The notes: a model not told the origin generated them from the letters alone. A stretch of DNA of 61,235 bases from Patescibacteria group bacterium (GCA_038063615.1 JBBTUT010000010.1:12035-73269), one strand, 5' to 3'; positions 34,763-54,766 are shown, counted from the first letter of the stretch. A program made the numbers and translations.

Positions 34763-34789
34763 CCATATGGAGGTCACACCTCCATATAT

Positions 34790-34857
34790 TATCGTGTCAA
34801 AAGCTTGCATTTATCGTATCACGATGATACGATAAACTAACCATTATGATACGATTG
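34790..34857. promoter_or_regulatory. Array of four TTATCGTATC-type half-sites (candidate operator) at the HTH-Fic gene start
   Basis: ttatcgtgtc 34790, ttatcgtatc 34811, gatacgataa 34826 (perfect inverted repeat with the previous site), gatacgattg 34848 overlapping the ATG. Confidence 0.55.
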
Positions 34858-35883
34858 TCTCAAATAAAGCCCCAATCTCAAATTCTCTATGCTATTTCGC
34901 AACATGGTCCAATTGGGACCGCCGAGATAGCAAAAAGACTGGGTGACAGTATTTCTCGCTCGACGCTTTCTCGCTACATCAAAGAGCTGAAAGAGTTTGG
35001 GCTTATCACCCCGTCCGGTATTGCGCGCGCCATCAAATACTCCGTCACACAAGATGCAATCCGTGCATACGATTTCGATCTCAGTGTTTACAATTCCAAC
35101 GAAATCTCAACGACACAAACACTTTTCAATCACAACCTTTTCGGTCTGTGCGAACAGGTTTTTTCTGACGATGAAATAAAAAAACTGGAAGAAACCACCG
35201 AGCAGTACCGTCAATGGAATGAAAAAACACCCAAAGAGTACCAAACGCTTGCATACGAACGCTGTGCAATAGAGTTTTCATGGAAGTCTTCAAAAATAGA
35301 GGGCAACACCTACTCGCTCCTTGAAACCGAGGCCCTCATTAAAAATAAAGTGGAGGCAAAAGGGAAACCCCATGACGACGCCACAATGATACTCAATCAA
35401 AAAAATGTTTTTGATCTGACAATGAGCAACACATTCCACAATCTATTTTCCGTGCAAACACTTGTTGATGTGCACAAAATGCTTGTAAGTGAGCTCAGTA
35501 TTCCCCACGACTTGCGCATTGCACAAGTCGGCATCACGGGGACCAATTACGCCCCGCTTCAGTTTCAATCGCAGATAAGGGAATCCCTCGAAAAACTCTT
35601 TGAGCTCGCGAGAAAAATCAAAGACCCTTTCCATTCTGCACTGATTTTACTTGCCGGCATTGCCTACATCCAGCCGTTTGCAGACGGAAACAAGCGCACT
35701 TCGCGACATATGGCGAATGCGATACTGCATAAAAACAATATGCCCCCCGTCGCGTGGAGAACCGTTGATGAAGTAGAATATAAAAAATGCGTCATCGCAT
35801 TCTACGAACTCGGAAACATTCGCCCCCTCGCACTCCTGTGGCTCGAAAATTATATCGAAACAACAAAAACCTTTTTTGCATAA
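34846..35883 (+). CDS. HTH-Fic/DOC family protein with degenerate Fic motif
   Basis: 345 aa; N-terminal wHTH; motif reads QPFADGNKRTSR instead of HPFx(D/E)GNGRxxR. Confidence 0.8.
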   Translation: MIRLSQIKPQSQILYAISQHGPIGTAEIAKRLGDSISRSTLSRYIKELKEFGLITPSGIARAIKYSVTQDAIRAYDFDLSVYNSNEISTTQTLFNHNLFGLCEQVFSDDEIKKLEETTEQYRQWNEKTPKEYQTLAYERCAIEFSWKSSKIEGNTYSLLETEALIKNKVEAKGKPHDDATMILNQKNVFDLTMSNTFHNLFSVQTLVDVHKMLVSELSIPHDLRIAQVGITGTNYAPLQFQSQIRESLEKLFELARKIKDPFHSALILLAGIAYIQPFADGNKRTSRHMANAILHKNNMPPVAWRTVDEVEYKKCVIAFYELGNIRPLALLWLENYIETTKTFFA

Positions 35884-35889
35884 TAAAAA

Positions 35890-35922
35890 AGTGGCTCCGT
35901 CATAAAGACCGAAGCCACCAAA
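35890..35922. terminator. Bidirectional terminator (end of Fic gene and of the minus-strand unit G2-G1)
   Basis: aaaaaagtggctccg-tcataaaga-ccgaagccaccaaaa. Confidence 0.6.
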
Positions 35923-35938
35923 ACCTTTTCTACTCTGC

Positions 35939-36106
35939 CTATTTCGGCGCTGATGTCCAATGCTTTCCGTTTGCACAAAGACCATCCTTGAAGTCAACGG
36001 CTGCGCACAGATAGGACCTCCTATCGTCGTTGCAATTACCCTCTTTTGTTACAGAGCCACAGGAGCTACAATCTTTTTTCAGTTTTTCTGTCTTCAGAAA
36101 AATCAC
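35939..36106 (-). CDS. Possible Cys-rich mini-protein, start codon uncertain
   Basis: AAAAAGGAGG SD; in-frame GTG overlaps the SD, CTG sits 8 nt after it; about 52 aa with CxxC and 3 more Cys; no ATG. Confidence 0.25.
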   Translation of the reverse strand: MIFLKTEKLKKDCSSCGSVTKEGNCNDDRRSYLCAAVDFKDGLCANGKHWTSAPK

Positions 36107-36132
36107 CTCCTTTTTCTAGAAAATGACTGCGT

Positions 36133-36558
36133 TTAGATCACATACAAATTGCTAATCTCTTGCAGTTCTTCCATTATCCTCTGCAAAGAACCTTCAATCT
36201 CAGAAATAATTCGCGAGGCATCCTTGAATTGCTCGTGTGGCGACTGGTCATTGACCAATCGTATTGAGTCATCCTTTGCCTCCTTTCTCATAACTTTCAG
36301 CCCAGAAGCGATAACATCGAGTTGCTGAGGAACTCCTTCAAGGAAGTCCTTGATCTCTTCAGGGACTGTCTCTTTCGTCTTTACGGCGGCAACGATCACC
36401 CGTAGATGATTGACCTCTTCCTGAAGAGAGTCGATATCGGTGAACAATGTTTCTACTATGACCTTACTGTTATTTCTCTCGCCGGCACACACGGTGCCTA
36501 TTGCGACAAAGAAAAAGAAACTGGCGAACATGAACATTCCGAAGATGTTTTTTCTCAT
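36133..36558 (-). CDS. Secreted coiled-coil protein
   Basis: Trimmed to MRKNIFGMFMFASFFFFVAIGTVCA signal peptide; helical remainder. Confidence 0.6.
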   Translation of the reverse strand: MRKNIFGMFMFASFFFFVAIGTVCAGERNNSKVIVETLFTDIDSLQEEVNHLRVIVAAVKTKETVPEEIKDFLEGVPQQLDVIASGLKVMRKEAKDDSIRLVNDQSPHEQFKDASRIISEIEGSLQRIMEELQEISNLYVI

Positions 36559-36588
36559 ATCCTCTCCCTCCATTATGGATAAAAAAGG

Positions 36589-36978
36589 TTATCCGCCGCT
36601 TTTGGGCTTATCCCCATTTTGCTCTCTCAAGCTAATCTCGTGGCGCGCCAACATCATGCGGACGGCGCCTTCGCTTTTCTTCAAAACAAAAGCCAACTCC
36701 TTGGAAGTTTCGTGCCGCTCTACGAGCGTCAGCAAAACTTTCCTCTCCACCTCCCCCATTACCTCTTCAAGCATTTTACCATTCTCAATCTCGTCTGCAA
36801 GGGAAGACAAAGAGATTGCTGACGGGTCCACGCCGTTCCACCTCCCATGTTTCATCATCCTGATACACTTTGATAACTCGTCTGCCAGCTTGGCCGCCTG
36901 ATAGACGCTCACCGCAGGAACAATGATCTCTCTTACCTGCTTTGTTTCTACCTTTTCCTCTCCGATTTCTTCGTTCAT
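36589..36978 (-). CDS. Small HTH protein (sigma-70 region-4-like)
   Basis: Trimmed to MNEEIGEE with AAGGAGGGGG SD; ERKVLLTLVERHETSKELAFVLKKSEGAVRMMLARH resembles region 4 / LuxR-type HTH. Confidence 0.6.
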   Translation of the reverse strand: MNEEIGEEKVETKQVREIIVPAVSVYQAAKLADELSKCIRMMKHGRWNGVDPSAISLSSLADEIENGKMLEEVMGEVERKVLLTLVERHETSKELAFVLKKSEGAVRMMLARHEISLREQNGDKPKSGG

Positions 36979-37071: not shown

Positions 37072-37108
37072 AAAAAACAACCCGACCTCTCGCGAAGTCG
37101 AGTCGTGC
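37072..37108 (-). terminator. Intrinsic terminator (3' part of module C, copy a)
   Basis: minus strand ACTCGAC-ttcgcgagag-GTCGGGT then TGTTTTTTG. Confidence 0.65.
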
Positions 37109-37120
37109 TATTTCCCAAAA

Positions 37121-37161
37121 TTTTCAAAAAGAACATAGGATTGACCTCCATCCCGAGGAGC
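37121..37161 (-). repeat. Module C conserved core (pseudoknot-like), copy a
   Basis: minus strand GCTCCTCGGGATGGAGGTCAATCCTATGTTCTTTTTGAAAA, identical at 43783..43824. Confidence 0.7.
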
Positions 37162-37211
37162 GCTCTTTTGGCAAAGCGCACGAAGCCGAAGTCGTCTACT
37201 GAGATCATGTT

Positions 37212-37430
37212 TCATCGAGTTAAAGCATGGTGGACAATTTCCCCCTGTGCATCATATGCGTGAAGATCACCGCTGCAAGCGTCACATCGGCGCCAGACAA
37301 GTTCGCATTGATCACAAACATACTCTCCATAAACATGGTCGATGCAAAGTAAATTGCCTCCGCACCGGCACTTCAGCTCGCTGCCACCAAAACTCCAACC
37401 TTTCTGAATTATCTCGCTTTTTGCAAACAT
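37212..37430 (-). CDS. Small zinc-ribbon protein
   Basis: 72 aa; CRCGG...C, CDQC, CDAC. Confidence 0.65.
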   Translation of the reverse strand: MFAKSEIIQKGWSFGGSELKCRCGGNLLCIDHVYGEYVCDQCELVWRRCDACSGDLHAYDAQGEIVHHALTR

Positions 37431-37452
37431 AGATTCTCCATACCCTCTTCAA

Positions 37453-37490
37453 AACCCACCTGCCGATTGTTCGGTTCAGGACTTACGGTT
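37453..37490 (-). promoter_or_regulatory. 5' UTR stem-loop U1, copy a
   Basis: minus strand AACCgtaagtCCTGaaCCGAacaaTCGGCAGGtgGGTT just upstream of SD. Confidence 0.7.
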
Positions 37491-37512
37491 CATATTTTTT
37501 TGAAAGAACTAA

Positions 37513-37563
37513 TCTGTTTCGTCTTTTCAGACTCATCAGTCGAGATACGCATCTCGATACAGA
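37513..37563 (-). ncRNA. Type III hammerhead ribozyme (HHR-a)
   Basis: minus strand TCTGTA|TCGAGA-tgcgta-TCTCGA CTGATGA GTCT-GAAA-AGAC GAA ACAGA; cleavage after A (complement of 37558). Confidence 0.85.
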
Positions 37564-37686
37564 GAGCATTTTTACGCGTGCTCAGCGCGGATGGTTTTGT
37601 CTCGGTTCATCAACCGGAGGGCTCTGCTTCCCTTGGGCTCCACATTTTATCATCAAGAAAAAGTGGACAAAGACTCTAGGATTTAG
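37564..37686 (-). repeat. Module M (structured domain 5' of the hammerhead), copy a
   Basis: about 125 nt shared with 38921, 40958, 48082, 50510, 49421; helices TTTGTC/GACAAA, TCCAC/GTGGA, AGGG/CCCT, CGGTT/AACCG, GAGCA/TGCTC. Confidence 0.75.
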
Positions 37687-37740
37687 CGCGAGGAGTTACC
37701 TCATTCAAACACCTCCTTTATTACTTCAATGAATTTATAC

Positions 37741-38106
37741 TTAGCGGTATCGAGAACCCGCTGAACAGCTGCAAGGATAGCTTCCCTCAGGTCCTTCTGC
37801 ACTATACTCTGTGACCCTGCCAGTGTCATCGCATGCTCTACATTTTGGCTCTTTGATTCTTTCTACTGTTTCTTTGTGCGCTTGTGCTATTAGTCGCGCA
37901 AGGTCATTCAGGGTAATTTCGCCCTTACCGTTGCATAGATTACAAACTTTTGCTACCTTGCCGGTGCCGCGACATTCATTGCAGGAAGTACTTTCCCCAT
38001 AATATCTGCTATCTTTATAGACATCTACTTTGCCCTTCCCGTAGCACTTCCGACACTCTACAAGGAATTTCCCTTTACCTTCACAAGCTTCGCACATCTC
38101 TTTCAT
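37741..38106 (-). CDS. DnaJ-CR-type zinc-finger repeat protein
   Basis: 121 aa from MKEMCEACEGKG; five CxxCxGxG-like units. Confidence 0.75.
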   Translation of the reverse strand: MKEMCEACEGKGKFLVECRKCYGKGKVDVYKDSRYYGESTSCNECRGTGKVAKVCNLCNGKGEITLNDLARLIAQAHKETVERIKEPKCRACDDTGRVTEYSAEGPEGSYPCSCSAGSRYR

Positions 38107-38447
38107 GTCCCCTCCTTTTTTATTTGTTCCTCTGCTATTTTGCCCGTTCCCCTGCATTTACTGCAATGCCTAATCCATGACTGCTCTTTTATAACATGGT
38201 CATTATACTGAGAGCTATTAGCAAGCTCTATTCCCCAAACATGACCCGTTCCTTCGCATTTATCACATTTGCACCTCTGGCACACAATCGCCCCTTCACC
38301 GCTTCCGCCACAATCACAACACTTCTCTGTCCAACATTCACCAAAACCATCTTTATGGTAGGTCTTTCCTTTCCCGTTGCACTGCCTACAAACTTTCACT
38401 ATCTCGATCTCGCCTACACCCTTGCATTCATCACATATTCTCGCCAT
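38103..38447 (-). CDS. DnaJ-CR-type zinc-finger repeat protein (paralog)
   Basis: 114 aa; CDECKGVG, CRQCNGKG, CCDCGGSG, CDKCEGTG, CSKCRGTG; stop overlaps the next start (ATGA). Confidence 0.75.
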   Translation of the reverse strand: MARICDECKGVGEIEIVKVCRQCNGKGKTYHKDGFGECWTEKCCDCGGSGEGAIVCQRCKCDKCEGTGHVWGIELANSSQYNDHVIKEQSWIRHCSKCRGTGKIAEEQIKKEGT

Positions 38448-38502
38448 AATTTTCCCTCCTTCGCCTAAAGTCCGTCGGCTTTTATTTGTTTTTCAAAGAT
38501 CT

Positions 38503-38583
38503 TCTGATTTCGTCCTGCCTTCGCCAGCCTCCTTCCGGCTTTGTTTTTGGACTCGTCAGCGCCAGTCTCACTGGCGAATCAGA
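38503..38583 (-). ncRNA. Type III hammerhead ribozyme, extended stem II variant (HHR-b)
   Basis: minus strand TCTGATT|CGCCAG-tgaga-CTGGCG CTGACGA GTCC...GCCGG-aaggagg-CTGGC...GGAC GAA ATCAGA. Confidence 0.75.
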
Positions 38584-38869
38584 GAAGGTTTTTAGAGAAC
38601 CTTCCGAAACTCTTACCACTATGAGAGTTTTTTACGAGACTCTCTTAAACTCGGCATAGTTCCATGCGCTCCGACCGCGCGGTCCCACTGTCGGACAAAG
38701 AAAGATGACTGACTTGCTACCATGCTTGGCAAGCTTCATCCTCTCTGGGCTAAGTTTGATACCGACGACAGTTAAGTGCTTAGCTAAATTTCTGTCGTGG
38801 GCCGCTGATCGAGCGGCAAACTCAAGAGCTTATTTATTTTCCTCCTTTCAAGTCTTTGCAAAGAACTCA

Positions 38870-38920
38870 TCTGTTTCGTCTTTTAAGACACATCAGCGCA
38901 GACACTCATCTGCGGACAGA
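38870..38920 (-). ncRNA. Type III hammerhead ribozyme with A9U core substitution (HHR-c)
   Basis: minus strand TCTGTC|CGCAGA-tgagtg-TCTGCG CTGATGT GTCT-TAAA-AGAC GAA ACAGA. Confidence 0.7.
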
Positions 38921-39040
38921 GAGCATTTTTACGCATGCTCAGTGCGGATGATTTTGTCTCGGCTCATCAACCGGAGGGCTCTGCTTCCCTTGGGCTCCAC
39001 ATTTTATCATCAAGAAAAAGTGGACAAAGACTCTTTAGGA
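38921..39040 (-). repeat. Module M, copy c
   Basis: near-identical to 37564..37686. Confidence 0.75.
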
Positions 39041-39071
39041 TAATGAGCACTGTCGCGCTATTTTGCTCTTT

Positions 39072-39275
39072 TTATTTTTGCCAAAAAGAGCACCTGGTAC
39101 AGGTAGCGGCTATCCGTTCAGCAGTCCAAAGATGTGGGTTCTTGATTGCGCGTACCCAGCGTGTACATCTTTTGCGAGCATCACGCTTGAATAACTCAGC
39201 CTTGCCACAACCATCAAACGGTTGAAGGGATTTTACGGTCCCCTTTCCACAAGTTACAGCTCCCCAATCCATCAT
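39072..39275 (-). CDS. Small Cys-containing protein
   Basis: 67 aa; GAGGAGG SD; first gene after the 39403 promoter. Confidence 0.55.
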   Translation of the reverse strand: MMDWGAVTCGKGTVKSLQPFDGCGKAELFKRDARKRCTRWVRAIKNPHLWTAERIAATCTRCSFWQK

Positions 39276-39402
39276 ATTTCCTCCTCGTTTTAAGCCCGTC
39301 GGCTGTTATTTGACTCTTTCAAAGAACTGCTTGTTTCCTCCTTGAAGAAAGGTACCATACCTGCAATATAGTTGCTGAGGTTTTTAGATGATTTGTGGTA
39401 AA

Positions 39403-39408
39403 ATTATA
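39403..39408 (-). promoter_or_regulatory. -10 box (TATAAT) of a candidate promoter for the 39275-to-37212 unit
   Basis: minus strand ctgTATAAT; weak -35; lies in the divergent spacer. Confidence 0.4.
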
Positions 39409-39480
39409 CAGATAGGCAAAAATGGCTTAAAACAAATGGTTTTTAAAGGGTTGGGGTAAAAAAACTGTTGACGAAAAAAT

Positions 39481-39510
39481 TTGACAAGTAATGCGGAAAT
39501 CGCTTACAAT
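39481..39510 (+). promoter_or_regulatory. Sigma-70-type promoter for the TrmB-like gene
   Basis: TTGACA-18 nt-TACAAT; preceded by aaaaactgttgacgaaaaaatt, a motif also present at 41881..41902. Confidence 0.6.
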
Positions 39511-39531
39511 TTAAAGAAGTTACACAATAAT

Positions 39532-40266
39532 ATGGCTCTCTCAAAATTTTTAGATTCAATAGGACTCGATGAAAAAGACCAGAAAGTATACTTGGCTCTT
39601 TTAAAATTAGTCGATGCGCCAATTTCAAGGATAGCCAAAGTGTCAGGAATTCAACGCACAACGGCATATTATCGTATAGAGAAATTAATAAAACTTGGGC
39701 TTGCTTCCAGCTATCGTCACCACAATGTAAAGCGATTTGTTGCTGAAAATCCAAACAAGATAAGAGGCGTATTGGAAAGCAAGATGCTAATGCTGGATAA
39801 GTATTTACCGGAGTTGCAAACCGTTTCTCTTGAAAGAAAATTGGTTAATTTGAGGCTTTTTGAAGGGATAGGGGGGAGGAAGCAGATGATAGAGGAAGAA
39901 TTAAATTGCAAAGAAAAAATTGTCCGCTCTATTGGATATGCCCGTGATTTGAGAAAGGTCCAAGGTGGCAGTATGGGATTTTCCAAAAGACGAATAGAGA
40001 AAAAAGTTTTTTCAAAATGTTTGCGTCCGCAAGATGATGAGTTTGACAAGGAATGGTTAGCTAGCCAACAAAAAGAATTACGGGAGGTACGGCTGCTGCC
40101 ACCGGGGACGAAACCGTCGGGGATGATCTTTGTCTTTGACAACAAAATAAGCATTATCGCTCCCGAAGAAGAGGAAGGGATAGGATTTCTTATTGAGAGC
40201 AAGAGCTTGAGCGCGACAATGAAATCAATTTTTGATGTATTGTGGGAAATGAGCAGGAGAACATAG
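39532..40266 (+). CDS. TrmB-family transcriptional regulator
   Basis: Trimmed to MALSKFLDSIGLDEKDQKVYLALLKL...; N-terminal wHTH like 53086..53865. Confidence 0.75.
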   Translation: MALSKFLDSIGLDEKDQKVYLALLKLVDAPISRIAKVSGIQRTTAYYRIEKLIKLGLASSYRHHNVKRFVAENPNKIRGVLESKMLMLDKYLPELQTVSLERKLVNLRLFEGIGGRKQMIEEELNCKEKIVRSIGYARDLRKVQGGSMGFSKRRIEKKVFSKCLRPQDDEFDKEWLASQQKELREVRLLPPGTKPSGMIFVFDNKISIIAPEEEEGIGFLIESKSLSATMKSIFDVLWEMSRRT

Positions 40267-40307
40267 CCAACGCATAGCAGGTATCTCCACTAGCACTATA
40301 TTTGTTT

Positions 40308-40850
40308 TTACCATCCCTCTCTTCCTAATATCAAATCTGCATGCTGTTTCATTGGTTCAATATGTTTTTTATGCGACGCTTCCACTTGCGTTGAATGTTT
40401 GATGACCTCCGCCTCAGATCTGCCCCTTTCATTATCGCGTTTGATTCTGCGCGCAAGACGCTCATCAGTTGGTGTGTCTATAAATATTTTCAAATTCCCA
40501 ATCTGTCTTAATGTATCGTGCAGAGCGAATACTCCCTCCACGACAACCAGCCCCGATTTAGCAGGAATAATTTTTATTTGCCCAACCCTTTCAGATGTGA
40601 CCATATCGTATTCCGGGACAAACACTTCTTTCCCGCCGGCAAGATTCAGTGCCATTTTGGCGCATTCATCCAAGTCCACGGCGCAGGGATCATCAAAATC
40701 ATATTCTCCGTTTTCCATCGGTATCATCTTTGACTTTCCTATATAAAAATTATCCGTACTTATGATTGCGGCATCCCCGAATTTTTTGGCCAAAGTTGAT
40801 TTACCCGATCCGCTTCCACCACAAATTAAAATTATTTGTCCTTTTTCCAT
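40308..40850 (-). CDS. Uridine kinase / PRK-family P-loop kinase
   Basis: 180 aa; ICGGSGSGKSTLAKKF, VVVEG, FIDTPTDERLARRIKRDNERGRS. Confidence 0.75.
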   Translation of the reverse strand: MEKGQIILICGGSGSGKSTLAKKFGDAAIISTDNFYIGKSKMIPMENGEYDFDDPCAVDLDECAKMALNLAGGKEVFVPEYDMVTSERVGQIKIIPAKSGLVVVEGVFALHDTLRQIGNLKIFIDTPTDERLARRIKRDNERGRSEAEVIKHSTQVEASHKKHIEPMKQHADLILGREGW

Positions 40851-40906
40851 AGTTTCTATTTTTTAATTATCACTTTTTTGAAAATAATTTTCAATGTCTT
40901 TAAAAA

Positions 40907-40957
40907 TCTGTTTCGTCTTTTCAGACTCATCAGCGCAGACACTCATCTGCGGACAGA
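40907..40957 (-). ncRNA. Type III hammerhead ribozyme (HHR-d)
   Basis: minus strand TCTGTC|CGCAGA-tgagtg-TCTGCG CTGATGA GTCT-GAAA-AGAC GAA ACAGA. Confidence 0.85.
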
Positions 40958-41080
40958 GAGCATTTTTACGCGTGCTCAGTGCGGATGATTTTGTCTCGGT
41001 TCATCAACCGGAGGGCTCTGCTTCCCTTTGGCTCCACATTTTATCATCAAGAAAAAGTGGACAAAGACTCTAGGATTTAG
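40958..41080 (-). repeat. Module M, copy d
   Basis: near-identical to copies a and c. Confidence 0.75.
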
Positions 41081-41153
41081 TGTTTGGAATTACTTCATTT
41101 CACGCATCTCCTTAAGGAGCACTCTTTTAAGGCAAAGTGCACGAAGCCGTTTA

Positions 41154-48081: not shown

Positions 48082-48300
48082 GAGCATTTTTACGCATGCT
48101 CAGTGCGGATGATATTCATTATCGGCGTTGAACTTACCGTGACAAACGCTCAAGTTTGTCAGGCAATAGGTTATTCTCATCAGCTTACCCTATTGCCACC
48201 AATTTTTACCGGACTGGCGCCGTGTCTATGATTTTGTCTCGGTTCATCAACCGGAAGGTTCTGCTCCCTTTAGGCTCTCCATTTTTTAAAACGGGGACAA
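48082..48300 (-). repeat. Module M, copy f, carrying a ~117-nt insertion (48114..48230)
   Basis: flanks match the other copies with compensatory AAGG/CCTT for AGGG/CCCT; the insert holds GGCAATAGG/CCTATTGCC and TGACAAAC/GTTTGTCA hairpins. Confidence 0.7.
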
Positions 48301-48316
48301 ATCAAACTAAGCGTCG

Positions 48317-48979
48317 TTAGTTGCCTAGCTTTTTCTCCCCAAGGAGTTTGGCAAGTATGTCTGCCCAGTCCTTCCCGTGCTGCGAGTAGGCGGTTCCAGT
48401 CCCATTGCAACGGTAGCACCCGTAGGTACCATCCTTGCCGGAGCCGGAACACTTCGCGCAGGTGCCTTGGGTCCCCTCAATACCAACCATGCCAACATAG
48501 TTAGTAAAGAGTGCCTTCGCGTTATGGAGCACGAAAATGGTGTTGTTCATCGCATCGAGCATCGCGCTCGCTGGATGATCGTGATGACCCATGTCGGTCA
48601 CCACCGCAACATACTTCGCGCCGCGAAGTGCCGCAGTGATGGCGAGTGCCCATCCAACAGACATTTCCTTCCCCACATGCTTGAGCCCCTCACCACCTTG
48701 AGTGGCCCGACCTGCTGGCATCAAGAGATCGCAGAGTACGACATCCCAATACGGAAGCCACGACTCTGCCTCAGCCTTCTTGTGTGCCGGCCATGACTCT
48801 ATCCCCTGACTCATGTACTCGGATTTAAGGGTCTTATACTTCTCATTATCCAGCTGTGGTTCAAGAAGCTCGAGCGCTTCGTCATGACTCCCCACAACCG
48901 TAAGGTCATGTAAAGCCCCAAGAACCTGCTGAGCTGAATTCTGGTGGTTTGCGCTGTCGTCGATTACTAATATTTTCAT
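48317..48979 (-). CDS. Receiver-like domain fused to CxxCxGxG zinc fingers
   Basis: 220 aa; MKILVIDDS... REC-like N-terminus; C-terminal CAKCSGSGKDGTYGCYRCNGTG. Confidence 0.7.
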   Translation of the reverse strand: MKILVIDDSANHQNSAQQVLGALHDLTVVGSHDEALELLEPQLDNEKYKTLKSEYMSQGIESWPAHKKAEAESWLPYWDVVLCDLLMPAGRATQGGEGLKHVGKEMSVGWALAITAALRGAKYVAVVTDMGHHDHPASAMLDAMNNTIFVLHNAKALFTNYVGMVGIEGTQGTCAKCSGSGKDGTYGCYRCNGTGTAYSQHGKDWADILAKLLGEKKLGN

Positions 48980-49057
48980 ATTAATCTCCTACCCCTGAAC
49001 CCGAGGTGCAGCTTGCGAAGAATTCGCATTTTTATTTATTTTATTTAAAAGAACAAA

Positions 49058-49122
49058 ATCTCTACAAGATTTCAAACACTCTGTTTAAAATCTTGATAAA
49101 GATGGCAAGTTTCTAACTTGCC
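49058..49122 (-). repeat. Double-hairpin module H2+H1, copy 2
   Basis: H1 49058..49103, H2 49104..49122. Confidence 0.75.
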
Positions 49123-49195
49123 AAAGGTTGACCTCCACCGTAGGAGTGTTCTTTAAGCAAAACACACAAAGCTCTTTTATCCACCTATTTTATTT

Positions 49196-49384
49196 TTATA
49201 TTTCCTCTCCTCCTAAAAACTTCCGCCCGTTACCGTCTGTCGTAATATCACCGATTGGATCTAGACTGAAGCCATTAAGCCTATCGAGAGAAGCTTGGCT
49301 CGCCACTGCTCCTTTTACTGCGAGAATGGCAAAAAATTTCTCGATATCCTCCACTTCTTCAACCTGCTCTTTTTTCTCGTTCAC
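49196..49384 (-). CDS. Hypothetical small acidic protein
   Basis: 62 aa from GTG 49384 with AAAGGAGGTG SD; the track ORF extends in frame into module M, taken as fortuitous. Confidence 0.45.
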   Translation of the reverse strand: MNEKKEQVEEVEDIEKFFAILAVKGAVASQASLDRLNGFSLDPIGDITTDGNGRKFLGGEEI

Positions 49385-49420
49385 TATCTTTCTCACCTCC
49401 TTTTTGTTTTTAACGGTCCC

Positions 49421-49512
49421 GACATTTTGTCTCGGTGTGTCAACCGGAGGGCTCTGCTTCCCTTTGGCTCCACATTTTATCATCAAGAAAAATGTGGATA
49501 AAAACTCTAGAC
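49421..49512 (-). repeat. Module M, copy h (subtype 2, no hammerhead attached)
   Basis: matches 50528..50626; CGGT-tgacac-ACCG replaces CGGTT-gatg-AACCG. Confidence 0.7.
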
Positions 49513-49527
49513 TATATTGATTACTTT

Positions 49528-50037
49528 CTACACAGGAGACATGTGTTTGAGAATATTCCTAGTTTTCTCTGAATAAACTTCTTTCTCAATGAATGTATTC
49601 ATCTTGTCCCTAGAGAAACGATCAATTTTAATCTTTTTTCTCAAATCAAAACTTGTCTCATTGTCTTCTAAGAAAACAAACTCTACTGCAAACCCATTGT
49701 TCTCCATCTCTGTGGCAAGATCCAGAGCGAACTCTTCCGCTTTGTTTTTTAATTCCCGCCAGTCTTCCTTGGTTGCTTCAGAATTCTCTTTTTCAGAAGC
49801 AAATATCCACCCGTCAGACACATTTACTTTAGCAAAACCAGAATGCTCTTTGCGTGAATTTTCCCTATATTTATAAGGGCCCCACGAAAATAATCCTTCT
49901 GCGCTAATTGTAACTATGTAAGCTGGGTAATATTTCCAATAACGATTTGCATCCCAATGCCAATCTCCGTGCGTACCCAAATAACCCTGAACTGTTTTTA
50001 CCACCGAAACCAGAACTTTCTTTACTCCATCCACCAT
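49528..50037 (-). CDS. Hypothetical protein
   Basis: 169 aa; GAGGAGGGGGAG SD; no motif. Confidence 0.6.
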   Translation of the reverse strand: MVDGVKKVLVSVVKTVQGYLGTHGDWHWDANRYWKYYPAYIVTISAEGLFSWGPYKYRENSRKEHSGFAKVNVSDGWIFASEKENSEATKEDWRELKNKAEEFALDLATEMENNGFAVEFVFLEDNETSFDLRKKIKIDRFSRDKMNTFIEKEVYSEKTRNILKHMSPV

Positions 50038-50088
50038 TTCTCCCCCTCCTCGTTTCGAGCCCGTCGGCTATTTTTTTGAAAGAACAAA

Positions 50089-50157
50089 TCTCTACAAGAT
50101 TTCAAACACTCTGTTTAAAATCTTGATAAAGATGAGGAGCGATGCTGCCGCTCCTCA
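50089..50157 (-). repeat. Double-hairpin module H2+H1, copy 3
   Basis: H1 50089..50134, H2 gaggagcg-atgctgc-cgctcctc. Confidence 0.75.
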
Positions 50158-50458
50158 AAGACAGATGGGAACAAGGTCCCTTTTTAATAATTTGTTTTGT
50201 CGGCGTCCCAACAAACACAAATTATCGTCAAGCATTCTGTCAAAATGCTTTCGCTGAGTTGATGCCTTCTATGGCATCTAAAGGTCTCATCAGCTTAACC
50301 TTACAACGATGGATTTCGTCAGCACCCATCCCTAATACTGGTGTCTCCTACTCCTTGCAGTAGGGATCACCTGCCAAATTTTTCCGCGACTGGACATTTG
50401 TCGCAACCTTAATCGCCTTTTAATTCAAGGGGTAAGGGACGGATTGTTGAAAGAACTT
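50158..50458 (-). ncRNA. About 300-nt hairpin-rich non-coding spacer
   Basis: no credible minus-strand ORF (the 73-aa plus-strand track ORF 50142..50363 is judged spurious); 19-bp GATAATTTGTGTTTGTTGG/CCGACAAAACAAATTATT helix, AAGCATT/AATGCTT and GATGCC/GGCATC hairpins, loop GGTtaagctgatgagACC. Confidence 0.45.
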
Positions 50459-50509
50459 TCTGTTTCGTCTTTTCAGACTCATCAGCGCAGATACGCATCT
50501 GCGGACAGA
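50459..50509 (-). ncRNA. Type III hammerhead ribozyme (HHR-g)
   Basis: minus strand TCTGTC|CGCAGA-tgcgta-TCTGCG CTGATGA GTCT-GAAA-AGAC GAA ACAGA. Confidence 0.85.
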
Positions 50510-50626
50510 GAGAACGCGGTTTTTGTCGCGGTCTCGACATTTTGTCTCGGTGTGTCAACCGGAGGGCTCTGCTTCCCTTGGGCTCCACATTTTATCATCA
50601 AGAAAAAGTGGACAAAAACTCTAGGA
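50510..50626 (-). repeat. Module M, copy g (subtype 2)
   Basis: hairpin next to the ribozyme replaced by GAGACCGCG/CGCGTTCTC; the rest matches the family. Confidence 0.7.
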
Positions 50627-50642
50627 TAGGTAGACGGGCGGC

Positions 50643-50879
50643 TTATTCCCAGCCAGACTGGAGAGGTCCGATGCGGCGCCGAGCTTTACCCTTTTCGCCC
50701 CTTAGAAGGATATAAATTCCTCCCTCGGGAGCAAGGATAAGTTGCGCCCCCTTCAGCTCCTCGTTGTGCCCCTCACTACGCCTCTCTCTAAGCTCCTTGT
50801 ATTGCCGAGCGGTGAGAGATACGCTTGAGCCGTCTTTCCCCTGAACCAAAACCTTGTCCCTGATGATTACTCTTTTCAT
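50643..50879 (-). CDS. Hypothetical small protein
   Basis: 78 aa from MKRVIIRDK; TAGGAGG SD. Confidence 0.55.
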   Translation of the reverse strand: MKRVIIRDKVLVQGKDGSSVSLTARQYKELRERRSEGHNEELKGAQLILAPEGGIYILLRGEKGKARRRIGPLQSGWE

Positions 50880-50899
50880 ACATCCTCCTAAAATTTCAG

Positions 50900-50937
50900 A
50901 ACCCACCTGCCGATTGCTCGGTTCAGGATTTACGGTT
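50900..50937 (-). promoter_or_regulatory. 5' UTR stem-loop U1, copy c
   Basis: aacccacctgccgattgctcggttcaggatttacggtt. Confidence 0.7.
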
Positions 50938-50958
50938 CATATTTTTTGAAAGAACAAA

Positions 50959-51025
50959 ATCTCTACAAGATTTCAAACACTTTGTTTAAAATCTTGATAA
51001 AGATGGGGAGCAGGTTTTGCTCCCC
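50959..51025 (-). repeat. Double-hairpin module H2+H1, copy 4
   Basis: H1 50959..51004, H2 ggggagca-ggtttt-gctcccc; followed to 51058 by a shared ccaatataattgcaaca.ccgtttcggctgagaattt segment. Confidence 0.75.
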
Positions 51026-51235
51026 AATATAATTGCAACAACCGTTTCGGCTGAGAATTTTTGAATGGGCGTTGTTTTCCTCGAGATATCAACGACCGCC
51101 CCCCCCCTTCACTTTCTCGATAAGCTAGCGCTTTTATTTTGTATCGGGAAGCGAATCCTCCGATATCAGCGGTTTCTGTTGCCATGCAATCCGCTCCCTG
51201 CCCCGTCTCCATTAAGGTGCAGTTTCCCCTAATTT

Positions 51236-51547
51236 CTATGTTTCTTTAGTATCTTCTGAAAAATGACCGCTTTCACTCTTTATGACATAAGTGAAGGTTT
51301 TGCCATTATCAGAAATACCTTTCGGAAACATCCTCCCGCGGATAAAAGTCTCGTCAAGAACTTTTCGGGGTGAGTTTTTGCCGTTAAGGACATATATAGT
51401 ATCATGCCCCGAGCCTCCGCTAGAGTTTTGTATGCCAATGACAGCAATGTCTGCGTCTTTGGCAATATACAAATCTGTGCTTGACCGGCTACTCCGAAGT
51501 CCTTCACGAACTTTTTCCGCGTGTTTTTGGAAGTCCTTACTTGCCAT
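51236..51547 (-). CDS. Hypothetical protein
   Basis: 103 aa; GAAGGAGG SD. Confidence 0.55.
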   Translation of the reverse strand: MASKDFQKHAEKVREGLRSSRSSTDLYIAKDADIAVIGIQNSSGGSGHDTIYVLNGKNSPRKVLDETFIRGRMFPKGISDNGKTFTYVIKSESGHFSEDTKET

Positions 51548-51625
51548 ATTTTTACCTCCTTCGTGTTTGAATCTGAATGAACACGGTCATTCACCGTTTG
51601 GGGTTATCCCTATGCAGTCCTTGCG

Positions 51626-51922
51626 TTAGCTGGCTTTTGCCACAGCCGGTCTTTTGTCACCCTTGCGGACGACTTTGACCTGCCGGGCAAAAGCCTCAAG
51701 GAACGGCTTCAATCTGCCGATCTCTGCATTGCGCTTGGCGACCTCGTTCAGAGACGCCCCGAGCTCATACATCGGTATGAACTTTTTCTGAGCGCGCGCC
51801 TCCTTCCCGAGGTTGTATCGGCAAGACCCGCAGATGGGCTTGACCACCCATTCACCCTTTTCCTTTTTCAAGGGAAGAGCAAACTGTGGTTTCTCCCCGC
51901 CACAAACTGTACATGTATGCAT
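51626..51922 (-). CDS. Small zinc-ribbon protein
   Basis: 98 aa from MHTCTVCGG...ICGSCRYN; first gene after the long leader. Confidence 0.6.
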   Translation of the reverse strand: MHTCTVCGGEKPQFALPLKKEKGEWVVKPICGSCRYNLGKEARAQKKFIPMYELGASLNEVAKRNAEIGRLKPFLEAFARQVKVVRKGDKRPAVAKAS

Positions 51923-51942
51923 AATAACCTCCATAATTTCAG

Positions 51943-51980
51943 AACCCCCCTGCCGATTTCTCGGTTCAGGATTTACGGTT
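51943..51980 (-). promoter_or_regulatory. 5' UTR stem-loop U1, copy d
   Basis: aacccccctgccgatttctcggttcaggatttacggtt. Confidence 0.7.
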
Positions 51981-52003
51981 CATATTTTTTTTGAAAGAAC
52001 TAA

Positions 52004-52072
52004 ATCTCTACAAGATTTCAAATTATTTCTAACTTAAAATCTTGATAAAGATGAGGAGCGGTTTTGCTCCCC
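52004..52072 (-). repeat. Double-hairpin module H2+H1, copy 5
   Basis: H1 52004..52052 (long-loop subtype as in copy 1), H2 52053..52072. Confidence 0.75.
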
Positions 52073-52578
52073 AATATAATTGCAACAGCCGTTTCGGCTG
52101 AGAATTTTCGCGTACATTTGGCATGGGCACTAACTCGTATCAATCTACCGTCTGGGGATCAACCAGATCGGTGATTGCTTACTTGCTAGTGTTTCTGTTC
52201 ACCATGCCGTTCTCTTTTTGCCAATCCACCCCGCTAAGAGTGTTGGCGCCCAGAGTCAGGACCAATAGATGCAAGGTAGGGCATCTATTACATTTCCTTA
52301 TTAAGACCTATTTTCTCGTCTCTTAATAAGGATTTCCGTCTTTCACGCCCCATGAGGACGAGGAACAGGTTGGGCTATAGCGAGCCCTCAAAACAGATTT
52401 GAATGTGCAACTTCAATCTCACGCAAACGCGAGGGACTTTGGGGCGAGAGTTTCGCCTGAAACTCCCCCGTATTGCGTGAGATCGTTAGGTTTCTTTCAA
52501 GGCACTGTTCGAGTCGCGGCCAATGTAAATAATTAAATGCCGGCTGTGGAATGTGTCACTCGCTATCAACTTAACTTT
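52073..52578 (-). ncRNA. Long structured leader RNA downstream of the 52.6-kb promoter
   Basis: no credible minus-strand ORF (the 67-aa plus-strand track ORF 52123..52326 is judged spurious); perfect hairpins CCTTATTAAGA/TCTTAATAAGG, AATAGATGC/GCATCTATT, ATCTCACGCAA/TTGCGTGAGAT, GGCATGG/CCATGCC. Confidence 0.5.
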
Positions 52579-52586
52579 CTGAGGGT

Positions 52587-52614
52587 ATTATAGCAAACCT
52601 GCAGGATTTGTCAA
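52587..52614 (-). promoter_or_regulatory. Consensus sigma-70 promoter driving the 52.6-to-46.1 kb unit
   Basis: minus strand TTGACA(52614..52609)-16 nt-TATAAT(52592..52587). Confidence 0.7.
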
Positions 52615-52761
52615 GCACTTCTGACATTTCATCTCCATCTCGTACTCAAATATGTTGTAAAATAAGGGTTTTTGCCGTTTCTTATTGTTATTTAGTTTGT
52701 ACAAAATGGCACTATGCGAACACAAAAAACAATAGTGTCAAAGTATTCTTGTTAATGGTGC

Positions 52762-52790
52762 TTGACAAAAGGAAAGCAATTTGCTACACT
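52762..52790 (+). promoter_or_regulatory. Sigma-70 promoter of a candidate plus-strand sRNA
   Basis: TTGACA-17 nt-TACACT. Confidence 0.6.
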
Positions 52791-52796
52791 CATGTT

Positions 52797-53108
52797 AGAA
52801 AGGTTTGGATTGTCCAAATCTAGGGCTTCTAAAAAGGAGGTGACCCATGCACGGATAACTCTCCACCAAAAGGTTCTCGACAAGAGATTCTTTTGATGGA
52901 GGGTTCTCTGCAAGCAATGGTAAGCCGAATGGACAGAATACCCAAAAAAGAAAGGAGGTGGGACAGATGTGGGGTTAGAGAATGAAAAAAAGCAATTTTT
53001 TTTGCGGTAGGTAAAGTTGGCGCTTTGCAAGTTAGCATAGCTAACACGAAAGCGCCGAAGTAGGTAGCGCCGAGTCGGGGATATTCTATTCCCCGGCTTT
53101 TTTTTGTT
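52797..53108 (+). ncRNA. Candidate ~300-nt sRNA with two perfect SD sequences followed by 3-codon mini-ORFs
   Basis: AAAAAGGAGGTGaccc-ATG CAC GGA TAA (52847..52858); AAAGGAGGTGggacag-ATG TGG GGT TAG (52967..52978); ends at GTCGGGGA-tattcta-TCCCCGGC + T8, which overlaps the 3' end of the convergent TrmB-like gene. Confidence 0.45.
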
Positions 53109-53865
53109 CTTTTTGTGCCTGAGCCCCTATTTTTGCGAGCTTTATTAAAGTTTTGAGAGTATCCGCGACATCTCGGCTTTGGATGAAGATGCTGGAAATA
53201 CGCTTGCCGAGCGTTACAAACTGAACACGGTCTTCATATACGGAAAGGTCACATTTGATAGGAAAATCTTTTGCGTCGACGCGAGTTCGGTCACTCAAGC
53301 TATCACTTGGCAATTCTTGTTTTGAATAATTGTAAACTGAAACAGCTTTGATCTTTCGCGCGGGACGATCTTTTGCAATGGTCTCTATTTCTCTTTGCGA
53401 AAAAGCTTCTTCTATCAGGTCGCGGTTGAACGCAAAATACCCCGTGTCTTCTTTGGATTCGTTCCCGGACGGAAAGAATGCGAGACTATCATGAAATGCC
53501 GCCTCTTTGCCATCAAAATATTTAAGGACCGGTCGTTCCCCTAGCTCTCGTTGAACACTCTTCATTTGCGGAATGATGTCTTTGAGGCGCTTCGCCGTCT
53601 CTCCGAGGATAAGCTGCTGCCTCTCCACAAAAGTCTCCAACCTCTCCGGCGGCTCCGCCGCATAATGCGTCTTCTTCCCAATCTCAACCTCTGAAACCAA
53701 TCCTTTTTTCGCAAGTGTTTCAAGCACAACATACACCGTAGGGCGTTTGATCTTTGTCTTCTCGGCAATGTCCACAACAGAAGCAGAGTCCACCTGCAAA
53801 AGCGCCAAATACACCCCCGCCTCCTTTTCATTCAACCCGATCTCTTGGAGATATTTTTCAAGCAT
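53086..53865 (-). CDS. TrmB-family transcriptional regulator
   Basis: 259 aa; MLEKYLQEIGLNEKEAGVYLALLQ... wHTH. Confidence 0.8.
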   Translation of the reverse strand: MLEKYLQEIGLNEKEAGVYLALLQVDSASVVDIAEKTKIKRPTVYVVLETLAKKGLVSEVEIGKKTHYAAEPPERLETFVERQQLILGETAKRLKDIIPQMKSVQRELGERPVLKYFDGKEAAFHDSLAFFPSGNESKEDTGYFAFNRDLIEEAFSQREIETIAKDRPARKIKAVSVYNYSKQELPSDSLSDRTRVDAKDFPIKCDLSVYEDRVQFVTLGKRISSIFIQSRDVADTLKTLIKLAKIGAQAQKEQKKAGE

Positions 53866-53872
53866 AAAATTA

Positions 53873-54694
53873 TTATTTTAATTTCTTCATTGTCGGATTA
53901 TTTGAAAGTGATTTCATTTGAGTTATTGCTATCGCATTTAGTCTCAGAAGTCTCTCTTTTTGCTCCAAACCTTGGCGGATAAATTCTGCGTTTAACGATT
54001 CGAGGTTTGCCAAGCACACGAGCTGTGTCACATCCGCATAGTCACGCATATTCCCCTCTTTGTTTTTATTTTTTGACTTCCAGTCTTGTGCGGCTATGCC
54101 AAACAAAGCCATATTCAAAACATCCGCCTCGTTTGCATATACAATCGTGGCGTCTTTAACAGACAATTTTTGTGGCAATACGATATTTTCTTTTATGGAA
54201 TCCGTATGGATTTTATAATTGATTTTGGTGAGCATCCGCTTTGCATCCCAGCCCAAAATAAGCCTCTCGTTTTCCTCTACTTTGAGCCTCTGGAATTCTT
54301 TGATCAAATACAACTTAAACTCCGGAGATATCCATGTGGCAAATTCAAAAGCAATATCTTTATGTGCAAAAGTTCCTCCCCCGTAGCGCCCTGATTTATT
54401 TATCATTCCAACAGCCCCCACTGCCTCAATCCACCTCTTTGGCGTAAGGGAAAAGCTGTTGGAGCCGGCTTTGTTTTTAAACCCATCGAATTCGATGGGT
54501 TTAAAATTTTGGTTGTTTATCTTCTCCCAAATGCCCAAAAATTCAACGGTGTCCATCGTACGCATCCAGTTTTGGATGATATAATCGGTCCTTTCACTGT
54601 CTTTATATTTTGCAATATCAGTCAACGAAATATAATCATTTTCGTTCCGCTGAAATGTATATATTTGTAACCCCCGTGCATTTATTTTTTTCAT
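53873..54694 (-). CDS. KilA-N domain-containing protein
   Basis: 273 aa; N-terminal pattern ([11 protein letters not shown]..., [29 protein letters not shown]) typical of KilA-N. Confidence 0.7.
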
Positions 54695-54766
54695 AAGATA
54701 TTTTATAAGTATGCTTGTATTGTATCACGCGCTTGCATCTCGACAAAGGTATGGTACAGTAGCCGT

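Follow-up and report, generated by a model that had tools for sequence, protein, structure and literature searches.

Hammerhead ribozyme motifs and TrmB-like regulators in a variable gene array between tig and clpP of a groundwater Patescibacteria bacterium

The tig-clpP interval and its borders

The stretch of DNA considered here (hereafter the window) comprises 61,235 nucleotides of a Patescibacteria group bacterium (GCA_038063615.1, JBBTUT010000010.1:12035-73269), a groundwater ultra-small member of the candidate phyla radiation (CPR) from a Paceibacteria / Yonathbacteria-like lineage, and it contains an island of 20,004 bp between the genes for trigger factor (tig) and the protease ClpP. 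The island has an HTH-Fic gene at its tig end, a KilA-N gene at its clpP end and, between them, a central region in which small genes are separated by repeated RNA modules that include hammerhead ribozymes, and in which two TrmB-like regulators are found. Comparison with relatives shows that the tig-clpP gap is a hotspot with differing cargo and not the site of a single insertion, that the island is a mosaic whose parts come and go independently, and that arrays of this kind are recurrently associated, across the CPR, with TrmB-like regulators and a conserved promoter.

A sequence-only reading of the window had placed the end of tig at 34762 and the start of clpP at 54767, and both positions are confirmed. 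The left anchor, tig (33746-34762, + strand; Pfam Trigger_N, 1.9e-32, and Trigger_C, 1.1e-26), is 73-79% identical to its counterparts in Yonathbacteria metagenome-assembled genomes (MAGs); the trigger factor of this lineage, at 338 amino acids (aa), matches the N- and C-terminal domains of Pfam without a match to the PPIase domain. The right anchor, clpP (54767-55363, + strand; Pfam CLP_protease, 2.8e-85), has just upstream of it a promoter, CTTGCA-N17-TGGTACNNT, that is kept in five relatives (loci L002, L003, L004, L010 and L015) and marks the right border of the island. As had been judged by eye, the island is more AT-rich than its surroundings (GC 0.429 versus 0.493 in the flanks). Its tetranucleotide distance to the flank profile, taken in 4-kb windows, is 0.026 as against 0.014 outside (Mann-Whitney p = 3e-5), and both measures switch sharply at the two borders.

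Counting open reading frames (ORFs) of at least 50 aa, 28 could be called with some confidence (median 137 aa); the earlier figure of about 35 is reached only with smaller ORFs. The at least nine Cys4 zinc proteins proposed before are approximately, not exactly, right: two or more CxxC motifs are present in seven of the 28 ORFs, and a single CxxC with extra cysteines in two others. Pfam bears out both TrmB-like regulators, the KilA-N and HTH-Fic proteins and the uridine-kinase-like NTPase; about half of the central small ORFs have no family or structure match. In a self-comparison of the window all dispersed repeats fall within 37072-52108, as the claim that they are confined to the island would have it, except for a 45-nt partner copy at 58712-58756. 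This copy belongs to an inverted repeat, 93% identical, between 43553-43597 (+ strand) and 58712-58756 (- strand). The former lies inside the island past the terminator of a 75-aa ORF; the latter spans the last three codons and the 3' untranslated region of a beta-lactamase-like gene near tRNA-Gly, and is present in the sister species (L246) too. The pair may have arisen by capture of a fragment, or may constitute a 3' RNA element common to both places.

Hammerhead ribozymes and companion RNA modules

The sequence-only reading had left the repeated RNA modules unnamed. Six of them are hammerhead ribozymes, which define the central 15 kb of the island; all are intercistronic and oriented with the genes, on the minus strand. 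Five are found by Rfam (RF00008). One of these, at 50457-50511 (type III), exceeds the gathering score of 48.5 bits with 49.9 bits, and the other four score 41-46.8 bits with E-values of 1e-7 to 6e-6: 37511-37565 (type III, cleavage triplet GUA; 43.6 bits, E = 1.1e-6, and 84 bits with a model of our own), 38868-38922 (41 bits, E = 5.7e-6), 40905-40959 (type III, between a 163-aa zinc-ribbon ORF and the kinase gene; 46.8 bits, E = 1.3e-7) and 48029-48083 (type III, after the gene for a 220-aa protein; 44.7 bits). The sixth, at 38501-38585, was missed by Rfam at E <= 5 and is matched by our own model R2, built from the five Rfam-found copies (32.5 bits, E = 8e-6); it has a long stem II and the core CUGACGA.

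The core CUGANGA...GAAA, in type III order with an open stem III, is intact in five copies, one of them being the variant with C at N7. In the copy at 38868-38922 the core reads CUGAUGUG, with A9 changed to U, and this hammerhead is probably impaired. A truncated remnant at 41690-41765 (- strand), a repeat of 38449-38564 and of the same variant as the sixth hammerhead, keeps CUGACGAG...GGACGAAAUCAG, has lost stem I and the cleavage site, and is not detected by R2. Cleavage triplets of the NUH type stand 5' of stem I in the alignments (GUC, GUA, GUU and AUU); the predicted cleavage sites fall 3' of positions 37558, 38578, 40952, 48076 and 50504 (- strand). When 44 related hammerheads are aligned, 97.3% of the cells are paired, and changes on both sides are seen in 10 of 15 pairs overall and in six of the seven pairs of stem I. 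The covariation score of 0.613 compares with 0.205 in shuffles, none of 500 of which reaches it, and with at most 0.093 in slid controls; because the 44 hammerheads were fitted to the model, the alignment leans towards the structure. The hammerhead motifs are genuine, and their self-cleavage is predicted. No twister, twister-sister, pistol, hatchet, HDV-like or other ribozyme was found in the island by Rfam at E <= 5, and 17 related loci likewise contain only hammerheads at the Rfam gathering threshold.

Three further kinds of module, again on the minus strand, accompany the hammerheads. Module A (repeat family D1) is a 93-nt multi-hairpin RNA at 37590-37682, with copies at 38947-39039, 40984-41076, 48227-48306, 49420-49513 and 50535-50627. 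It stands directly 5' of five of the six hammerheads, and the copy at 49420-49513 has no hammerhead beside it. It forms three hairpins, and the stem under its invariant loop, AAGCAGAG, occurs in three compensated forms. A model of this module (R1) recovers all six copies and one in an unrelated contig (L038), where it is again directly 5' of a hammerhead; as this is the only outside copy among 99 loci (L036-L134), the covariation evidence for module A is thin. Module A might even constitute a functional RNA of a new class, acting together with the hammerhead. Module B (family D5) is a stem-loop just 5' of the ribosome-binding site, whose four copies (37448-37515, 47224-47291, 50895-50962 and 51938-52005) share the same three-tier hairpin with z-scores of -1.4 to -2.9. 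Module C (families D4, D7 and D8) couples a variable GC-rich hairpin to a conserved 20-bp AU-rich hairpin (50065-50160, with further copies near 44206-44297, 47292-47352, 49035-49126, 50936-51030 and 51981-52075). Its fold has z-scores of -6.4 and -6.2, and the GC-rich hairpin differs between copies with both arms changed. In the module A/hammerhead unit that follows the gene for the 220-aa protein, an extra insert of about 110 nt (48116-48227, - strand) carries a 9-bp hairpin and a second CUGAUGAG box without a matching GAAA half.

The cassette array and the TrmB2 promoter region

The main cassette array (46138-52108, - strand) consists of ORFs split by modules A, B and C and by hammerheads, and ends at a terminator (46126-46098). 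In transcription order its nine ORFs, all on the minus strand, encode a 98-aa zinc-ribbon protein (51626-51922), proteins of 103 aa (51236-51547), 78 aa (50643-50879), 169 aa (49528-50037) and 95 aa (49196-49483), the 220-aa protein with a receiver-like N-terminus and a DnaJ/anti-TRAP-like zinc finger (48317-48979), a 103-aa membrane protein (47358-47669), a 61-aa protein (47036-47221) and a 211-aa zinc-ribbon protein (46138-46773). The terminator-like hairpins of the array are each followed by UCUUUAUCAA. The proteins encoded between the modules are mutually unrelated, except for two zinc-finger paralogues and the two TrmB-like regulators.

The array is headed by TrmB2 (53086-53865, - strand), a TrmBL2-like winged-helix regulator of 259 aa (Pfam TrmB, PF01978, 5.3e-17). 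The TrmB family comprises archaeal sugar regulators, and TrmBL2 is a chromatin-like repressor. Searched against the PDB, TrmB2 has TrmBL2 (5bqt) as its closest solved structure (1e-3), with only query residues 5-116 aligning, and there is no Pfam match past residue ~110. It resembles these proteins in its N-terminal winged-helix domain, and TrmBL2 in its length and N-terminal sequence. It differs from them in having no match to the TrmB sugar-binding domain, in belonging to a bacterial family that is CPR-specific by source names (629 homologue clusters are found at E <= 1e-20, and wherever a source name includes a taxon, this is Patescibacteria) and in its putative target, apparently a single adjacent promoter that contains a palindrome.

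This array promoter, TTGACA-16 nt-TATAAT with an upstream TG (52614-52587, - strand), is the best promoter match in the island (12/12) and lies about 470 nt beyond the TrmB2 stop codon. Its -35 box is covered by the palindrome TGTCA-N8-TGACA (promoter block 52587-52626, - strand), which is unique in the window and, as a candidate, is likely to be the operator of TrmB2. The promoter block is conserved in five other TrmB2-type loci. It leads into a structured, untranslated leader of 478 nt (52105-52582, - strand; no ORF, fold z-score -6.3), of which the first ~160 nt are about 97-99% identical to the sister species; beyond that species only the promoter block and one block of ~70 nt (in L248) align. 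The non-coding block at ~52425-52960, covering the array promoter, the leader start and the mini-ORF region described below, is as a whole roughly 97-99% identical to the sister species, as against 81% for the adjacent TrmB2 protein.

On the plus strand, between a promoter-like site (52762-52790) and a terminator (53072-53099), lie two mini-ORFs with a strong Shine-Dalgarno sequence, MHG* (52836-52858) and MWG* (52954-52978). They might be carried by a candidate plus-strand RNA of ~300 nt, convergent to TrmB2. Of 13 TrmB2-type loci, 11 have the pattern of GGAGG, 3-10 nt, ATG, 2-3 sense codons and a stop (beyond the window in L246, L247, L248, L255, L256, L257, L132, L062, L053 and L125) as against 0.09 expected from shuffles, and a same-strand control showed none. 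The mini-ORFs lie 130-380 nt beyond the stop codon of the TrmB2-type gene, on the other strand, and encode peptides such as MHG, MWG, MND, MSD and MED. In this they resemble the bar minigenes of phage lambda and regulatory mini-ORFs, which likewise combine a strong Shine-Dalgarno sequence with 2-3 sense codons, the feature rather than the peptide being conserved; they differ from them in standing on a putative convergent small RNA beside a regulator gene in the CPR.

Association of TrmB-like regulators with hammerheads

The second regulator, TrmB1 (39532-40266, + strand; Pfam TrmB, PF01978, 1.7e-9), is divergent from a 67-aa ORF (39072-39275, - strand), which by tblastn has 77% identity to positions 9974-10168 of L246. 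A nearly identical 22-nt motif, CTGTTGACGAAAAAATT(T/G)GACA, occurs upstream of TrmB1 (39465-39486) and of a 418-aa ORF (41885-41906), both on the plus strand, which suggests that the two genes may share a promoter or operator.

A search of metagenomes with the hammerhead core (GUC-N6-GAC stem II) yielded 120 loci, picked for this core only, many of them short or from phages. When all their ORFs were clustered the commonest family was TrmB-like, in 17 loci; a second group of hammerhead loci is marine, phage-like and unrelated to the island. Two layouts are seen. In nine of the 17 loci TrmB is divergent from 1-3 small genes, followed by a co-oriented hammerhead 480-880 nt from the TrmB start, and the unit of TrmB1, the 67-aa gene and the hammerhead at 38868 in the window is exactly of this kind. 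Five loci have a TrmB protein 47-60% identical to TrmB2 and, as in the window, hammerheads downstream of its gene with the same orientation. In one of them (L132) the array is also situated between clpP and tig, the latter being only 37% identical. Of the island proteins, TrmB and the 220-aa protein are the only ones to reappear in these 120 loci, even at E 0.5; the homologue of the latter in L153 (41%) is followed by a hammerhead, the same link as in the window.

The association was also approached from the regulator, through seven TrmB2 homologues that lie on long contigs and were picked irrespective of any ribozyme. In each of these loci TrmB is followed by 0.8-1.8 kb in which no gene is called and, beyond it, by an array of co-directional small ORFs, none with a Pfam match. 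Four loci (L245, L248, L255 and L257) hold a total of seven canonical hammerheads, all downstream and co-oriented (binomial p = 0.016 for the downstream side), as against none of 35 loci anchored on tig (Fisher p = 3e-4). Three of the seven (L246, L255 and L257) are near clpP-rny-HU. More generally, TrmB2 is conserved at 53-87% across hundreds of Patescibacteria clusters, often beside clpP-rny-HU. In L245 the first array gene (10079-11707) encodes a Ro60/TROVE protein with a vWA domain and has a hammerhead after it. Ro60 proteins, which bind structured small RNAs, are linked to RtcB, an enzyme that ligates the kind of ends that a hammerhead leaves.

Variation of the gap among relatives

The scan for tig, with one genome per species, gave the 35 tig-anchored loci, the best of which belong to Candidatus Yonathbacteria and other Paceibacteria MAGs (tig identity 64-79%). 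The relatives keep the order of two upstream genes, tig, the gap, clpP, rny and HU. Neighbours in this lineage, tig and clpP are separated by just 50 bp in L003 and 92 bp in L002, and are also adjacent in L031 and L101. The gap measures 0.9 to 6.8 kb in thirteen loci (L004-L011, L013-L015, L018 and L019) and more than 10 kb in L012 and L017; in L016 clpP is not reached within 5.7 kb. Its content, with labels read from the sequence apart from some given by Pfam, includes rsmE in most relatives and, as extras, RelB/YafQ-like toxin-antitoxin pairs and a 911-aa methylase-like gene of restriction-modification type. The gene rsmE (16S rRNA methyltransferase), present in the gap of most Yonathbacteria relatives (L004-L019), was not found anywhere in the 61-kb window. 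By tblastn the island proteins are absent from all tig-clpP gaps of the 35 loci, the only matches being distant TrmB-like genes outside the gap in L028 and L030. The content of the gap differs in every relative compared.

Closer relatives resolve the island into its parts. L250 (tig 99%) carries the same island. All contigs with an identical Fic protein proved to be the same genome, and the idea that this protein occurs in different contexts was rejected. L251, from the same well (tig 95%), lacks window positions 34833-35881, exactly the Fic gene, and has a RelB gene further on. In L252-L254, from three other sites (tig 89%), the gap is only 2.6 kb and consists of Fic (81%), a homologue of a 146-aa island protein, a 65-aa ORF and HicA with a small partner, followed by clpP. 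The 65-aa ORF starts with the first 10 codons of TrmB2, and in L252 HicAB occupies the position of KilA-N beside this remnant; such a stub suggests that the array was lost in L252-L254 rather than gained in the window. The sister species L246 (identity 99% for ClpP and RNase Y, 98.5% for Xer and 81% for TrmB2) has clpP directly beside TrmB2, without KilA-N, and the same leader and modules A, B and C in a different order, with the homologue of the 67-aa protein as the first array gene. It also has an extra hammerhead (6256-6310) and two small ORFs between rny and clpP, where the window has only 225 bp.

These comparisons qualify the earlier description of the interval as an accessory island. 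It is variable and compositionally shifted, but it is not one island, the Fic gene, the KilA-N gene and the array varying independently. Nor is it foreign throughout: arrays headed by TrmB2 form a type of locus that recurs in Paceibacteria at large, in many cases next to clpP-rny-HU.

End genes and other features of the window

The HTH-Fic gene (34846-35883, + strand; Pfam Fic, 6.8e-14, with a MarR/HTH domain) is a separate indel unit whose product is SoFic-like (PADLOC SoFic, 3.4e-17; PDC-S04). The KilA-N gene (53873-54694, - strand; Pfam KilA-N, 2.7e-20; PHROG 2657, 6e-54) sits between TrmB2 and the clpP promoter and is 50-59% identical to more than 150 IMG/VR contigs. Its match to the PADLOC candidate PDC-S22 (1.5e-126) is full-length, and given the IMG/VR relatives the gene looks like a recent insertion. 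These were the two proteins with PADLOC matches among ten tested, the centre of the island giving none.

Next to Fic, a two-gene minus-strand unit with a promoter-like site at 37049-37021 encodes a 129-aa protein (36589-36978) and a 146-aa protein with a predicted signal peptide (36133-36573), the latter matched at the corresponding position by a homologue in L251 (40%) and in L252 (36%). A 72-aa zinc-ribbon ORF with two CxxC motifs (37212-37430, - strand) is followed by module D12 and a strong terminator (37077-37166; terminator hairpin 37106-37077, 13 pairs). D12 is a 96-nt module with a second copy at 43734-43829, and two operons end with D12 and a strong terminator; the second is the unit of a 128-aa and a 105-aa ORF (43855-44745, - strand; D12 and terminator 43739-43829). 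Two DnaJ-type CXXCXGXG zinc-finger ORFs of 121 and 114 aa (37741-38447, - strand; Pfam 6e-9 and 1.3e-7) are the paralogues mentioned above (31% identity, E = 1.5e-11). The P-loop protein of the PRK/uridine-kinase family is encoded at 40308-40850 (- strand; Pfam PRK, 1.3e-27), and the 163-aa ORF with four CxxC motifs at 41154-41645 (- strand; PHROG 1305, DNA-binding, 4.7e-6). A plus-strand unit of the 418-aa and 75-aa ORFs (41966-43504; terminator 43490-43515) has no match in Pfam, PHROGs or PADLOC. A 289-aa protein (45105-45974, - strand; AlphaFold pLDDT 78.6) belongs to a large uncharacterised family without a Pfam model, counting 1170 representative clusters at E <= 1e-3. Its structure model has no fold match in the PDB at E <= 0.001, the weak scattered matches to restriction-endonuclease-like folds being left uninterpreted. 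A distant homologue lies beside polA in L248, and instead of island cargo this may be a protein conserved in the CPR.

Outside the island, tRNA-Gly (59848-59921) adjoins an Xer-like gene (60057-60992), which is, as had been noted before, the nearest recombinase; a tandem 7-nt repeat, (GTTAGTT)n, lies between them at 59988-60041. Other features of the window are a second low-GC stretch at 17000-20000 (GC 0.40-0.45), perfect palindromes at 13039-13096 and 19773-19828 with related copies at 19044-19117, and a 96-nt direct repeat (77%) at 4179-4270 and 55370-55464, the latter copy between clpP and rny.

A mosaic locus and the alternatives to it

Taken together, these observations point to the tig-clpP interval being a mosaic, fast-changing accessory locus at a lineage-specific recombination hotspot and not a single mobile element, a reading that we consider probable, if far from certain. 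Its backbone would be a locus type shared across Paceibacteria, made up of TrmB2, the convergent mini-ORF RNA, a sigma-70-type promoter set in a palindrome and a structured leader. Under the control of TrmB2, acting on the array promoter through the palindrome, a long minus-strand transcript would extend from this backbone across the array, whose small genes are mutually unrelated and in several cases of the zinc-ribbon type. The intercistronic hammerheads are predicted to cut the transcript during its synthesis, leaving module A at each 3' end so created and the module B and C hairpins at the corresponding 5' ends and at the ribosome-binding sites, so that each cassette might yield its own mRNA with its own stability and translation. 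At the level of DNA the repeated modules may serve as recombination substrates, by which cassettes are shuffled, duplicated and replaced. The unit of TrmB1, its divergent small gene and its hammerhead would have been added independently, as would the conflict-type genes, the SoFic-like HTH-Fic at the tig end and the PDC-S22-type KilA-N at the clpP end. The end genes, the toxin-antitoxin and restriction-modification-type genes in the gaps of relatives and the link between hammerheads and phages are the only grounds for proposing that the cargo may serve in conflict or host interaction.

In several respects the locus is comparable to hypervariable or defence islands, which likewise occupy a fixed spot between housekeeping genes, show a compositional shift, lack self-mobility genes and vary in cargo from relative to relative, with toxin-antitoxin, restriction-modification-type, Fic and KilA-N genes among it. 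It differs from them in that matches to defence families, known or candidate, are limited to the two end genes, the central 15 kb being an array punctuated by RNA modules and free of such matches.

Several points weigh against this reading or narrow it. Outside the window genome the modules occur only in L246 (A, B and C) and L038 (A), and the sample picked through TrmB2 is small, with seven loci. The ribozyme is frequent and not obligatory, as the arrays of L247 and L256 have no detectable hammerhead; nor can all sites in the window work, given one core mutation and one remnant. For about half of the array cargo neither homologues nor structure matches give a clue to function. The PADLOC matches are confined to the two end genes, PDC-S22 being only a candidate system, and not all cargo is accessory, since the 289-aa protein belongs to a large, widespread family. 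Finally, the transcription units, the cleavage and the regulation are all predictions drawn from sequence.

The best of the alternatives, which we nevertheless regard as rather unlikely, is that the central array derives from a decayed prophage or the early-gene region of a phage, TrmB2 being the former repressor. Hammerheads that cluster around small, variable genes are a typical prophage feature, several having been described on either side of one gene or of a short block of genes (Perreault et al. 2011, PMC3088659), and ribozyme-associated genes are enriched for phage genes (PMC10085705, PMC4604425). The island is like these clusters in its co-oriented intercistronic canonical copies around small, inconstant genes, and in their presumed role of cutting polycistronic RNA into single-gene mRNAs. 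The many IMG/VR relatives of KilA-N and the clearly phage-like part of the 120 hammerhead loci are in line with such an origin. However, no structural, packaging, lysis, replication or integration gene is present in the window or in the seven TrmB2 loci, the exact hammerhead core of the island has no match in IMG/VR, and the 418-aa and 289-aa proteins have no relatives there. The conservation of TrmB2 and its frequent position by clpP-rny-HU fit a vertically inherited chromosomal locus. The island also departs from the known clusters in lying in a CPR chromosome without phage genes, in embedding its ribozymes in the larger repeated modules A, B and C, and in having a conserved promoter-palindrome and mini-ORF RNA. 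Shared ribozyme-associated genes were reportedly described by Roth in 2014 and by Weinberg in 2015; the strongest family here is the TrmB-like regulator and not Mu-like phage genes. In literature searches no publication was found that links the hammerhead with TrmB or the CPR, or TrmB with Patescibacteria, an earlier description from 2015 being possible. The TrmB link and the conserved 3-codon mini-ORF appear not to have been described before.

It is improbable that the whole 20 kb represents one integrated mobile element which entered in a single event, perhaps aided by the Xer-like recombinase near tRNA-Gly. The lower GC and deviant tetranucleotides with sharp borders, and the presence of mobile-element-type genes (KilA-N and Fic) at the two ends, are what such an element might show, as is a weak interrupted direct repeat, GCTTG.ATT..GTATCACG, near both borders. 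The score of this repeat, 24, is reached by 6 of 500 shuffles (p ~0.01), which makes it marginal, and it overlaps promoter-like CTTGCA boxes. Within the 28 island ORFs Pfam and PHROGs revealed no integrase, transposase, relaxase or replication gene, and these libraries and PADLOC gave no phage structural protein or Cas protein either, in agreement with what had been seen by inspection of the sequence, and the PHROGs matches of island proteins are only of regulator type or weak. The Xer-like gene and tRNA-Gly both lie outside the island, the tRNA 5 kb away, with no tRNA gene at either border. The Xer protein, itself 5 kb off, is 98.5% conserved in L246 and 57-65% conserved in distant relatives, as expected of a housekeeping XerC/D. 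Moreover, the parts of the island vary independently in L246, L251 and L252, and in other lineages the TrmB2 array is found in other chromosomal contexts.

Even less probable, in our estimate, is an integron-like cassette array lacking its integrase (CALIN), in which the hairpin modules would be the recombination sites. The array does resemble one in its co-oriented small genes without evident promoters of their own, about half of them unannotated, in their separation by imperfect palindromes and in a cassette order that differs between sister species. No IntI-type integrase accompanies it, though, the conserved Xer being the only tyrosine recombinase in the window. Its hairpins are conserved in sequence (82-96%) and not in structure alone; by eye the outer ends of the module C hairpin have none of the RYYYAAC / GTTRRRY boxes of an attC core; and several of the boundaries are ribozymes, which act on RNA. 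An assembly artefact, in which a chimeric contig was joined through repeats, can practically be dismissed: shorter contigs from other samples do break inside the island at repeats (40084 and 50874), but the tig-Fic and KilA-N-clpP junctions each recur at 99.7-100% identity in contigs of several independent samples and assemblers, the whole region is spanned by a 130.6-kb contig (Hainich aquifer, well H41; 99.9-100% identical to the window over the compared parts), and homologous partial versions exist in L246 and L252.

Implications

Beyond the mosaic locus itself, we put forward, as a possibility well short of an even chance, that Paceibacteria carry an undescribed conserved locus type in which a TrmBL2-like regulator, a mini-ORF RNA and a palindrome promoter govern a hypervariable array bounded by ribozymes, and in which the modules both cut RNA and act as DNA recombination joints. 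Why bacteria place self-cleaving ribozymes by particular genes has been a question since 2011-2015 and, according to reviews, is still unexplained. The locus offers a compact and recurrent case, with one regulator, one promoter with a candidate operator, defined cleavage sites and reshuffled sister genomes in the same aquifer, and this makes the question testable. Two other leads, each pointing to a regulatory RNA, are the 3-codon mini-ORFs and the non-coding block next to TrmB2 that is almost identical in the sister species.

That a very small CPR genome spends 20 kb on a variable array beside core proteostasis genes bears on how episymbionts diversify. If the proposal is right, bacterial ribozyme-associated genes would gain a concrete, testable system, and these tiny episymbionts would have a regulated, fast-evolving repertoire for use against phages or for interaction with their hosts.

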